Assembly: GCA_965237955.1 (NCBI GenBank) | Contig: OZ250169.1 | Span: forward strand, 5,056,001-5,120,000 | Reading direction: 5' to 3' | DNA length: 64,000 bases | Origin: Candidatus Marinacidobacterales bacterium | Lineage (GTDB): Bacteria; Acidobacteriota; Vicinamibacteria; Marinacidobacterales; SMYC01 | Shown: piece by piece, positions 7,485 to 12,828 of the stretch | How positions within the stretch are numbered: the first letter of the stretch is position 1 | Layout: every line of letters begins with the position of its first letter | Notes under the pieces: generated by a model | The model's input: only the letters and a program-made list of their open reading frames with translations | Databases searched by the model: none | What the model was told of the DNA's origin: nothing | Program-made: the position numbers and the translations under genes

Positions 7485-8783
7485 TCATATACCGAGCCAC
7501 CGGGGGAGCGCGAGCGCTATATCGGGAATGAAGGTGACGAGAAGGAGTGCCGCGAGCATGGCCAGATAGAGCGGGATCAAAGCGCGGCTAACTTCGGTGA
7601 TCGACGCGCCGGACACGGTACAGCCGAGGAACAAAACGCTACCGACCGGTGGTGTGGCGAGGCCCACGCACAGGTTCATGACCATGACGATGCCGAAATG
7701 CACCGGGTCTACGCCGAGGGCGGTCACGACCGGTAGCAGCATCGGCGTGAAGATCAGGACCGCGGGCGTGATATCGAGGACGGTCCCCATTACGAGCAGA
7801 ACTAAATTAATAATGAGAAGCGTGGCGACGGTGTTTCCCTCCAGGAGCGAAAACGCCGAGGCTATGAGCTCCGGAATCCGCTCGTAAGCCAACACCCACG
7901 AAAACGCCATCGACGCCCCGACGAGGAGCAGTACGATCGCGGTCGTGGTCGACGCTTCTACCAGGACCTTGGGTATCTCTCGTGGCGCCATCTCGCGGTA
8001 GACCACGACCGCGAGAATGAAGCTGTACAAGACCGCAACGGCGCCGGCTTCGGTCGCGGTGAAGTAGCCGGCGATGATGCCGCCCATGACCACGACGACG
8101 AGGAACAGACTGGGGAGCGCGGCGAAGAATCGTCGGGCGAGCTCGCGCGCGCCGACGCGTGCGTCCACGGGATAGCCACGCCTTTTGGCGATCGTGCCGG
8201 CGACGATCATGAGGAGCAGACCAATGAGAAGGCCGGGCACGTATCCAGCAACGAACAAAGCTGCGATCGAAACGCCACCGGCAGCGAGCGCGTAGACGAT
8301 GAGAATGTTGCTCGGCGGGATCACGAGGCTCGTCGTGGCCGACGCGACGTTCACCGCCGCACCGAAGCCTAGGTCATAGCCTTGCTCCTTCATGCGCGGG
8401 ACCATGAACCCACCCACGGCGCCCACGGCTGCGACCGCGGATCCCGAGATGGCGCCAAAGAGCATGCCGGCGACGATGTTCACGTAGGCGAGCCCGCCCG
8501 GTAGCATCCCTACGACGCCACGGGCGAGATCGATGAGCCGCCGCGCCATGCCGCCGCGATTCATCAACTGGCCGGAGAGAATGAAGAACGGGATCGCGAG
8601 GAGCGTGAACCGATCCAATCCAGCGGCCACGCGCTGAGCTACGGTGATGGACGCGGTCTCGAAGCTCATGGTCAGAAGCAGAGCGACGAACGCCGATAAA
8701 CCAATGCCGACCGCGATCGGCGTCCCCAGCGCGATGAGCGTGACGAAGGTGCCCAGCAGGACGAGGGTGTTAAGCGGATCCAT
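7485..8783 (-). CDS. dctM: TRAP transporter large permease
   Basis: LLAIPFFILSG, FGAISGSAVA, IPPS, DPVHFG and TPPVG motifs. Confidence 0.95.
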   Translation of the reverse strand: MDPLNTLVLLGTFVTLIALGTPIAVGIGLSAFVALLLTMSFETASITVAQRVAAGLDRFTLLAIPFFILSGQLMNRGGMARRLIDLARGVVGMLPGGLAYVNIVAGMLFGAISGSAVAAVGAVGGFMVPRMKEQGYDLGFGAAVNVASATTSLVIPPSNILIVYALAAGGVSIAALFVAGYVPGLLIGLLLMIVAGTIAKRRGYPVDARVGARELARRFFAALPSLFLVVVVMGGIIAGYFTATEAGAVAVLYSFILAVVVYREMAPREIPKVLVEASTTTAIVLLLVGASMAFSWVLAYERIPELIASAFSLLEGNTVATLLIINLVLLVMGTVLDITPAVLIFTPMLLPVVTALGVDPVHFGIVMVMNLCVGLATPPVGSVLFLGCTVSGASITEVSRALIPLYLAMLAALLLVTFIPDIALALPRWLGI

Positions 8784-9240
8784 GATTGCGGGCACGCGGG
8801 AGGGCGGCTTCGATCGTATAGAACAGAATGAGAGCGCCCGACAACGGGAGCGCGAGATAGACATAGCCGCGCTCGAGGTGGAGCGCGGGCGACGTTTGTC
8901 CCAAAGCGAGCGTCGCGTGCACGAGTCGGAGGCCACCGATGACGAGGATGAACATCGCGAATGCGGCTACGCACGCGGCGACGACGAGCTCGAGGATGCG
9001 GTTTCGGGGGAGAAGCTCGACGGCCAAGTGCGCTCGTTGTCCGAAACCGTAGCTCGCTCCGAGAAGACCGAGCCACATGAGACCGAATCGAGCGAGCTCT
9101 TCGGTGAGAGAGCTTGGATCACGCAAGAGATAGCGGGTCGCAACTTGCCACAGCACCGCGAGGACCATCGCGGCCATGAGCAGCGCGAGAGCGCGCTCGA
9201 GGGCACGATCGAGGTGCGGTTTCGAGTTTCTGAGTGTCAC
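8770..9240 (-). CDS. dctQ: TRAP transporter small permease
   Basis: QVATRY...TEELARF...HLAV; four TM helices; lies between dctP and dctM. Confidence 0.92.
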   Translation of the reverse strand: MTLRNSKPHLDRALERALALLMAAMVLAVLWQVATRYLLRDPSSLTEELARFGLMWLGLLGASYGFGQRAHLAVELLPRNRILELVVAACVAAFAMFILVIGGLRLVHATLALGQTSPALHLERGYVYLALPLSGALILFYTIEAALPRARNHGSA

Positions 9241-10936: not shown

Positions 10937-11662
10937 TCAAACTCCCTTCGTCAGCCACGATTCGGCTCTAGCGTATCCCTCCCGGTCCCCCACGTCGAGG
11001 CGGCTTCCTTGCATCTCGTGGGTGAATACTGGAACGCGGGGCGCGAGCCAGGCGATGAAGCTCCCCAGCGCGTCGGCGCGGTGTTTTTCCTCGACGAACG
11101 TCCTGAGCTCGGCGAGCGTGTCCGCTTCGAGAATGTAGAGTGCTGGACACGCCCATGCAGTCACGGGTTTTTTGGGTTTTTCCTCGAGCCGCACCAGTCG
11201 GCCGTCATCGTCGATCTCGGCCACACCCGTGCGTTTGAGCTTGTCCGCGTCGGGCTCGCGGTATCTGACAATGAGATTTCGAGGCTTCGCGTCATAGTCG
11301 GCCACGAAAGCCGCCAAGGAATCTCTGAACAAATTGTCTCCGGCGGCCACGAGGATCGGTTCATCCACTCCGCGATGCCCGATCGCCCATGCGAGGTCGC
11401 CGACGGCACCGAGACGGGTCTCGTCCGTCGTCGTGCCATCGTTGAGGACGGTGACTCGTCCATCGCCCCACTCCACGAATTGAGTGTGGAATCGCTCGTT
11501 GCAAACGACGAGAATCTCCTCGAAGTTTTCCGTTGCCTCGAGCTGATCCACGAGGTGGCCCACGATCGGCTTTCCGGCGACAGAGAGAAGCGGCTTGGCG
11601 CGATCTTTCGTCAACGGGTACATGCGCGTACCAAAGCCCGCGCAAAGAAGAATGGCCTTCAC
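10937..11662 (-). CDS. Sugar-1-phosphate nucleotidyltransferase
   Basis: ILLCAGFGTRMYPLT...KPLL, NDGT...RLGAVGDL, AGDNLF, EEKP; translationally coupled to the kinase. Confidence 0.9.
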   Translation of the reverse strand: MKAILLCAGFGTRMYPLTKDRAKPLLSVAGKPIVGHLVDQLEATENFEEILVVCNERFHTQFVEWGDGRVTVLNDGTTTDETRLGAVGDLAWAIGHRGVDEPILVAAGDNLFRDSLAAFVADYDAKPRNLIVRYREPDADKLKRTGVAEIDDDGRLVRLEEKPKKPVTAWACPALYILEADTLAELRTFVEEKHRADALGSFIAWLAPRVPVFTHEMQGSRLDVGDREGYARAESWLTKGV

Positions 11663-12828
11663 AGCATGCGCACTCCGTCGTCGCTCTCTACGGCGAACAC
11701 GTTCACGGGGAGCTTGAGCTTGAGCTTGTCAGTGACCGCCTCGACGTCGGTGACCAGCGCGACGACGCATCCTCCGAAACCCGCTCCACTGAACCGCGAG
11801 CCGTAGACGCCTTGGGTTTGCTCGAGTGTCCGCTGCAGCTCGATGAGCTCCGGCGAGCCCGCTTCCCAGTTCTCGATCGAGCTTTGGCACGATGCGTTCA
11901 TCAGCTCGCCGAAGCCTTTGAGGTCGCCGTGCTTCCAGAGCTCGATGCCACGGCGCACTCTGGCTCGCTCGGTGAAAAAATGCCGCGCGCGGAGTAGCTC
12001 GGCGCGCGGCAGCCGGTCGCCGAACTCTTCGAAGACCGTGTCGTCGAGATCGTGGAGCCCGGCGACGTCATCGCGCCCGGCGAACGCGGTGAGCTTGTTG
12101 CACGCGGCAAAGCATTCTTCGACGCGGCGGTTGTAGTCCGTGGCGGCGAGATTGCGGGTGACGCCGGTGGCGGCAACCAGGATCTGAAACTGAGGCGCGC
12201 TGTCACCGAGCGGTATCGGTTCCCATCGTCCCTCTCGTGAATCGATCAAAAGGAGGTGCCCGCGGCGGGCGCCGACGATGGCCGCGGGGTCGAGAATGCC
12301 GACTTTGATCCCGACGAACTCCCGCTCGGCTCGAAGAGCGAGCTCGACCTTGTCGGAAGGGGAAAGCGTGACGTCGTTGACGTCAGCGAGTGCGGTCAAA
12401 TAGGCGAGCAGCACCGATGCCGACGAGCTCAATCCGCCGCTGGGTAGCGTGCCCTGCACTCGACCCCGGAGCCCTACGGCGGGGCGGGGCAGGCGATCTC
12501 GGAGAACGAGCGCCGCGGCGGCGACGTAGCGACCCCAATCGTCGTGGTCGTCGACGCTCTCGAGCGTTTCCAAATCGATGGTGACGTCACCGGGAAAGTT
12601 GTCGCTGGCGAGACGTATGGTCGGCGAAGCTTCCGCCGTGAACGTCAAGACGGTATGGGCGCTCACCGCCATCCCCAGCGTCGGGCCGCCCTGGTGATCG
12701 CTGTGCGCCCCGATAGGACAGATGCGGTAAGGGGAGATCACGACGCGCATCTTGTCGTGACGCTCGTCGCCTCCCTCTCGTTGTATGATCGCGCTCAAGT
12801 CTTCCTGCAGAGGTGACCATGATTTCAC
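11659..12828 (-). CDS. GHMP sugar kinase, galacturonokinase (plant GalAK)-like
   Basis: SPYRICPIGAHSDHQGG, GGLSSSA, GILD, SSIENWE, RFSGAGFGGC. Start uncertain. Confidence 0.85.
   Translation of the reverse strand: MKSWSPLQEDLSAIIQREGGDERHDKMRVVISPYRICPIGAHSDHQGGPTLGMAVSAHTVLTFTAEASPTIRLASDNFPGDVTIDLETLESVDDHDDWGRYVAAAALVLRDRLPRPAVGLRGRVQGTLPSGGLSSSASVLLAYLTALADVNDVTLSPSDKVELALRAEREFVGIKVGILDPAAIVGARRGHLLLIDSREGRWEPIPLGDSAPQFQILVAATGVTRNLAATDYNRRVEECFAACNKLTAFAGRDDVAGLHDLDDTVFEEFGDRLPRAELLRARHFFTERARVRRGIELWKHGDLKGFGELMNASCQSSIENWEAGSPELIELQRTLEQTQGVYGSRFSGAGFGGCVVALVTDVEAVTDKLKLKLPVNVFAVESDDGVRML

Follow-up and report, generated by a model that had tools for sequence, protein, structure and literature searches.

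The known bacterial routes for uronates are catabolic, either of the isomerase or of the oxidative type, and UDP-glucose serves as the source of UDP-uronates. A run of six genes in a 64,000-nucleotide stretch of the genome of a Candidatus Marinacidobacterales bacterium (contig OZ250169.1, positions 5,056,001 to 5,120,000; the whole stretch is referred to as the window) raises the question whether an external uronate can also be activated directly, i.e. by import, phosphorylation at C1 and transfer to a nucleotide. The run occupies positions 7485–12828 of the minus strand and consists of six intact open reading frames (ORFs), the kinase gene being first and dctM last. ORF coordinates and Pfam assignments agree with the original prediction of six coupled genes (kinase, nucleotidyltransferase, SIMPL, dctP, dctQ, dctM), and the successive junctions from kinase to dctM are a 4-base overlap, a 4-base gap, a further 4-base gap, a 4-base overlap and a 14-base overlap, from which we infer co-transcription of all six genes. 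The operon is real and conserved, and comprises:

11659–12750, minus strand: kinase, a galacturonokinase (GalAK)-type GHMP sugar-1-kinase, 363 amino acids (aa) from ATG 12750 (Pfam GHMP N/C, tree)
10937–11662, minus strand: sugar-1-phosphate nucleotidyltransferase, 241 aa (PF00483; 31 % identity to P0308; family hidden Markov model)
10219–10932, minus strand: SIMPL/DUF541 protein (PF04402), probable passenger
9237–10214, minus strand: DctP, solute-binding protein of a tripartite ATP-independent periplasmic (TRAP) transporter (TIGR00787 above cut-off; uronate-associated clade)
8770–9240, minus strand: DctQ, TRAP small permease (PF04290)
7485–8783, minus strand: DctM, TRAP large permease, 432 aa from ATG 8783 (PF06808, TIGR00786 above cut-off)

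On balance, it is probable that galacturonate (alone or with glucuronate) is converted to UDP-uronate for glycans after TRAP import and 1-phosphorylation. In this predicted pathway, for which substrates, nucleotide, product use and all enzyme activities are deduced from homology and gene context, the hexuronate would enter through the TRAP system and receive a phosphate from ATP at C1 by action of the kinase, and the nucleotidyltransferase would turn uronate-1-phosphate and NTP into NDP-uronate, most likely galacturonate into UDP-galacturonate (UDP-GalA). The host's predicted UDP-glucuronate 4-epimerase would then connect the product with the UDP-glucuronate (UDP-GlcA) pool for glycan synthesis. 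New in this locus are the uronate-type TRAP system within a kinase–transferase gene run and a host in which no known catabolic route was found.

Kinase and nucleotidyltransferase

The kinase stays below the cut-offs of all five NCBIfam galactokinase (GalK) models (TIGR00131, 184 vs 226.65 bits). Its translation lacks the GalK signature GEHTDY and carries the originally quoted motifs PYRICPIGAHSDHQGG and SSIENWE. Profile search matches named by their sources comprised galacturonokinases of Camellia and Tetracentron, a Musa GHMP kinase and a Spirogloea protein. The Camellia protein matches with 192 bits and 35 % identity, compared to 126 bits and 30 % identity for the host's own GalK, which is encoded by a canonical galT-galK pair elsewhere in the genome, separate from the operon kinase. 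The nearest named relatives belong to the Acidobacteriota, two of them labelled Vicinamibacteria, and several JGI homolog records bear the automatic label galactokinase/galacturonokinase. A GTDB scan revealed kinase relatives in 589 of the first 600 candidate stretches, i.e. in at least 589, the best 80 of which (distant loci; nine have less than 900 bases downstream) were used for the counts given below. Among the matches listed, the family is common across many bacterial phyla. Therefore, "eukaryote-like", as the route had been called, denotes where the family was studied and not where it is found, and the family is not a rare one in bacteria.

The kinase tree (LG+G4) was calculated from 65 hand-picked rows: the window kinase, 35 of the 80 distant loci, 4 close homologs, 4 plant/algal, 7 unnamed eukaryote-like and 13 GalK sequences, and 1 outgroup; the plant rows are annotation-named orthologs, and the set is without Arabidopsis GalAK and full-length glucuronokinase. 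Within this set, the 51 GalAK-type rows, plant/algal ones included, form one clade at 100/100, apart from the 13 GalK rows, in line with the predicted plant-type affiliation. A tree constrained to unite the 40 bacterial GalAK-type rows remained acceptable (p-AU 0.139); it thus decides neither on the direction of transfer nor on whether plant GalAK is of bacterial origin.

At the sugar site, Glu and Tyr of GEHTDY are replaced by Ala and His in the kinase, likewise in the plant proteins and in 79 of the 80 distant loci, the full signature being Ala and His-Gln where GalK has Glu and Tyr-Asn. This Glu of GalK reportedly binds the C6 hydroxyl of galactose, and the later Tyr is said to favour the galacto configuration. 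The catalytic Arg and Asp positions of GalK are kept; in the segment around the catalytic Asp (N-G-I-L-D-Q in plants) the kinase retains Asp, but has Val for Asn and Pro for Gln. The AlphaFold model (pLDDT 93.9) matches the GalK fold with Z 42.4 and a root-mean-square deviation of 2.1 (353 aligned); a fold match of this predicted structure is uninformative on the kinase's sugar. The GNPSD-type N-terminal motif of glucuronokinase (lily peptide pattern) is absent from the kinase, and the pattern has no match in the host genome. A further GHMP kinase of the host (L003 766–3247) adjoins an inositol-monophosphatase-like gene, as judged by eye, and is presumably arabinokinase-like. A literature search, with most subscription papers and supplements outside its reach, yielded no experimental test of a bacterial GalAK-type enzyme; glucuronokinase genes are present in a few bacteria according to PMC2823444.

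The nucleotidyltransferase falls under every NCBIfam cut-off shown (best score 83 bits vs at least 166 among the 25 models listed) and contains NDGT...RLGAVGDL, i.e. the NDGT...RLGAV.DL motif that had suggested its likeness to the pyrophosphorylase half of glucuronokinase fusions. Such a fusion, P0308, was found by a search for longer forms: its N-terminal domain aligns over the full length of the nucleotidyltransferase with 31 % identity, and its second domain has VGFMGNPSD, close to a sequenced lily glucuronokinase peptide (PMC2823444). Against a family profile built from 33 bacterial members, P0308 scores 161 bits, compared to at most 75 for 11 RmlA, GalU, ManC-like and other transferases. 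By these sequence comparisons with one fusion protein, the nucleotidyltransferase is assigned to the family of the glucuronokinase-fusion N-terminal domain, as anticipated. The P0308 fusion and the GalAK-type pairing would thus make one transferase family the partner of two different uronate kinases. In L021 and P0306, the nucleotidyltransferase is fused to a UDP-glucuronate-4-epimerase-like protein. Two further records, P0305 (transferase–DctP) and P0135 (DctM–kinase), are probably frameshift artefacts, yet display the same adjacency.

Transporter, neighbourhoods and surroundings of the operon

The genes dctP, dctQ and dctM are adjacent, and their products score above the family cut-offs. In the PDB, DctP is matched best by 4X8R (top) and 4N8Y, bound to glucuronate and galacturonate, respectively (PMC11668362). 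When the DctP model was used for a fold search, the Z-scores were tied and did not separate ligand types. Around a Prevotella record (G045), 20 of 151 genomes match DctP, at 22 places and with 51–63 % identity. Twenty of these places were fetched and annotated via one representative per gene cluster. Hexuronate catabolism genes (UxuA, UxaC, UxaA, UxaB/UxuB-type, KduI, Eda or KdgK-type) were found in 16 of the 20 loci, pectin or alginate lyases in two and nothing recognisable in the remaining two; the kinase or nucleotidyltransferase occurred in none of the 20. Searches of 121 genomes each around G041 and G042 yielded no match and five matching genomes, respectively. From its closest structures and these neighbourhoods, DctP is likely of the predicted uronate type, and hexuronate binding is expected.

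Conservation of the kinase–nucleotidyltransferase–TRAP neighbourhood, as originally envisaged, holds within the host lineage, but is rare beyond. In the host's class, the kinase is present in 11 and a close DctP in 20 of 201 genomes; in the host's family, a close DctP is present in 7 of 18 genomes, every one of them among the 8 kinase carriers. Eight of ten kinase-carrying relatives have kinase and TRAP genes in one locus, seven of these in the gene order of the window and one (G458) in the order dctPQM-kinase-transferase, as in L011. DctP is encoded elsewhere than the kinase locus in G003 and was not found in G006 (83 % complete). Outside this lineage, a same-family nucleotidyltransferase adjoins the kinase in 48 of the 80 distant loci, but close TRAP (DctP) genes lie near the kinase in just four, co-directional in one. 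The conserved unit is thus kinase plus nucleotidyltransferase, and the TRAP link is mostly lineage-specific. A UDP-glucuronate-4-epimerase-like gene (labelled by 51–57 % identity to JGI-named P0306) occurs in 13 and UDP-glucose dehydrogenase (Ugd) in 8 of the 80 distant loci; the 13 epimerase loci are not independent, since related Prevotella, Bacillaceae and Spirochaetes are among them. SIMPL, counted originally as part of the salvage operon, was ruled out as a pathway member: G004 and G011 retain only 30-residue remnants, G029 none, and the 80 distant loci hold one weak, non-adjacent match. It looks like a dispensable passenger.

Several loci differ in their neighbours. In three Acidobacteriota loci (L096 4891–7719, L128 3107–5948, L011 2003–5012), the kinase module is flanked by a DUF1080 / Gfo-Idh-MocA / TIM-barrel trio, the genes known from the 3-keto glycoside-cleaving pathway, whose products could set the uronate free for import. 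In six of the 80 loci (L014, L019, L023, L024, L026, L039), all Planctomycetota/Verrucomicrobiota and all without the nucleotidyltransferase, the kinase adjoins a protein of about 370 aa without Pfam hit (e.g., L019 9176–10312), which may be an alternative partner enzyme. A different nucleotidyltransferase (30–75 bits with the family profile) follows the kinase in L057, L062, L067, L074, L078 and L081, several of them Chloroflexota and one Acidobacteriota. In the Latescibacterota loci L017, L018 and L029, a uxuA-like gene is divergent from the kinase–transferase pair.

Upstream of the kinase, the window contains a divergent gene remnant:

12813–13212, plus strand: 5' end of a Gfo/Idh/MocA oxidoreductase gene, then 3' end of a Sir2 gene (tblastn vs relatives; Pfam on whole copies)

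Several relatives carry complete copies of both genes. ATG 12750 is the probable start of the kinase, judging from four of its seven closest homologs (P0005–P0007, P0010); homolog P0004 starts at the equivalent of TTG 12798. The open frame extends to GTG 12828, which was ruled out as start because homologs begin at ATG 12750 and this GTG overlaps the divergent remnant. An assembly chimera was likewise ruled out, since contigs of two other runs (X4 and X7) cover the operon without gaps in two overlapping pieces (6800–11018 and about 10990–12930). Near 12930, the X4/X7 contigs carry about 685 extra bases compared to the window; part of the remnant's loss is therefore specific to strain or assembly. 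Further away, an ISL3-family transposase gene (15331–16881, minus strand) lies between an amidohydrolase and a rhomboid gene, which adjoin each other without transposase in G006. A thiamine-pyrophosphate enzyme gene (3397–5050, plus strand) is broken across several frames and forms a single 584-aa ORF in G006. Downstream of dctM (6368–7015, plus strand) are a short zf-HC2 anti-sigma-like ORF and a truncated DUF1326 ORF. Scans for promoters and terminators remained at chance level (1 vs 0.9 and 6 vs 4.3 expected), and no plasmid match was obtained at E 1e-45.

Predicted fate of an imported uronate and competing readings

The host genome (single contig, 98 % complete) was searched for the families UxaC, UxaA/GarD, UxuA, GH28, Eda and KduI, none of which was found, and control families were detected; 14 single proteins of the Bacteroidota clusters, used as queries, likewise remained without match. 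No convincing uronate dehydrogenase was recognized in a weak check based on two motifs and by-eye inspection of 24 of the 33 epimerase-family matches. As no catabolic genes were found, an imported uronate would have no evident fate but activation. One host gene is UDP-glucuronate-epimerase-like by its matches to MoeE5 and 6ZL6 (E 3e-78), the latter of which we take to be the Bacillus cereus UDP-glucuronate 4-epimerase. MoeE5 is listed as UDP-glucuronate 4-epimerase (PMC7984243). The host also encodes Ugd.

A number of observations weigh against galacturonate salvage as set out above. The kinase shares only 35 % identity with the plant (Camellia) protein and belongs to a 12-row subclade (98/93) which is sister to the group holding the plants. 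After the catalytic Asp it has Pro, in common with 115 of the 120 homologs closest to it; Gln takes this place in plants and in 59 of the 80 distant loci. At a position where the window kinase and plants have Tyr, the 120 closest homologs comprise 68 with Phe, 31 with Tyr and 21 unmatched. DctP shares about 41 % identity with the uronate binders of solved structure and departs from them in several conserved stretches, and its clade also adjoins alginate and unsaturated-uronate genes. To these points are added the scarcity of TRAP genes at the distant loci and frameshifts or an insertion in operon genes of G009, G015 and G018, reflecting sequencing error or decay. Genome searches detected no uronate-releasing enzyme in the host, and UxaC turned up in none of the 41 genomes searched within the order, carriers or not, so its absence is not specific to kinase carriers. 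The fish domain related to the nucleotidyltransferase is nearly inactive in vitro: according to Gangl et al. 2014 (PMC3938481), the zebrafish fusion showed only trace, barely detectable pyrophosphorylase activity, and a fully functional pyrophosphorylase homolog was missing as control.

Some of these points would fit the same logic of import, phosphorylation and activation applied to another sugar acid (glucuronate only, mannuronate/guluronate or a modified uronate) or to a nucleotide other than UTP, a variant that we regard as unlikely, though the strongest of the rivals. Since Phe for Tyr and Pro for Gln mark the kinase subclade near the sugar site, its specificity may possibly be shifted. 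The glucuronate complex is the best structure match of DctP, whose clade is also encountered with genes for alginate lyases, KduI and GH88. In G006, G458 and L011, the module is flanked by the trio of DUF1080, Gfo-Idh-MocA and TIM-barrel genes, and a related cluster of four enzymes has been found to cleave glucuronides (bioRxiv 10.1101/2024.03.25.586180). The window kinase, however, retains the plant-type Ala, His and Tyr, the family-wide neighbours indicate the UDP-GlcA/UDP-GalA pool, and a search of the host for the trio's DUF1080 and TIM-barrel genes gave no match.

Alternatively, the operon could serve a Leloir-like catabolic route, in which the uronate would be activated, epimerised or decarboxylated as nucleotide sugar and would reach central metabolism in this way instead of via the isomerase pathway. 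This would accord with the catabolic clusters to which the DctP clade belongs elsewhere, with the lack of any known uronate catabolic gene among those searched for in the host, with an operon that, unlike capsule-type loci, has no glycosyltransferase, epimerase or Ugd gene, and with the divergent oxidoreductase conserved beside it in 7 of 10 relatives. It is nonetheless improbable: nothing nearby encodes a downstream step, in polysaccharide loci of other phyla the pair accompanies Ugd and epimerase, and the host's oxidoreductase is broken with the operon being intact. A role of the kinase as second enzyme for galactose or a neutral sugar, beside unrelated TRAP genes, is very improbable, despite galactokinases being its best solved matches (by default, as no GalAK-named structure is among the PDB matches) and best NCBIfam scores, the "galactokinase" label of homologs in some sources and the rare TRAP linkage outside the host lineage, since its scores lie below the GalK cut-offs, the tree splits it from GalK at 100/100, the host already has galT-galK, and kinase and TRAP genes co-occur in two different gene orders.

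For galacturonate salvage, a further-reaching version is possible, though doubtful. The locus would then represent a complete and hitherto undescribed bacterial pathway from external uronate to NDP-uronate, acting as the sole uronate sink in a lineage without isomerase route. The transferase would be the founding member, on the bacterial side, of a dedicated uronate-1-phosphate pyrophosphorylase family and constitute the active homolog which was missing in the fish GKUP work. Nucleotide-sugar uronate catabolism might also be involved, and plant GalAK might stem from this bacterial radiation. 

A salvage route as such would give bacteria a direct way of making acidic glycans from scavenged uronates, those of pectin or others. 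The locus lends itself well to testing, since its transporter, kinase and transferase are open to separate assays, all of which should point to the same sugar. The nucleotidyltransferase would allow a direct test of the pyrophosphorylase question left by the fish domain (PMC3938481), the enzymes may be useful for UDP-GalA production, and at least 589 GTDB stretches attest to the breadth of the kinase family.

Comparison with known systems

Plant GalAK (EC 2.7.1.44) together with UDP-sugar pyrophosphorylase (USP) provides a close parallel, sharing with the locus the kinase clade, the sugar-site signature and the predicted two-step salvage to UDP-GalA. The window kinase differs in being bacterial, in its limited identity to the Camellia protein and in Pro for Gln after the catalytic Asp; its partner is a 241-aa PF00483 enzyme instead of USP, and a TRAP importer is encoded in the same gene run. 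With zebrafish/Xenopus GKUP, a fusion of glucuronokinase and putative pyrophosphorylase, the nucleotidyltransferase shares family membership of the N-terminal domain, as compared via the GKUP-like fusion P0308 and not the zebrafish sequence. In contrast to GKUP, the transferase is here a stand-alone gene paired with a GalAK-type kinase, and no glucuronokinase motif was found in the host. The uronate-binding TRAP systems (4X8R, 4N8Y) and Bacteroidota dctPQM-uxu/uxa clusters represent the same transporter type and DctP clade, but there the transporter is linked to isomerase-pathway genes, whereas here it is linked to kinase and nucleotidyltransferase. Leloir GalK has the same fold and catalytic Arg/Asp positions, but forms a separate clade; the window kinase has Ala/His for Glu/Tyr and no adjoining galT, and the host possesses its own galT-galK. 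Bacteroides fragilis FKP (PDB 5YYS, 9IIT), which we take to activate scavenged fucose for surface glycans, likewise combines a bacterial GHMP kinase with a pyrophosphorylase; FKP, however, works with fucose and GDP, is one fused protein and shares 15–17 % structural identity with the window kinase.

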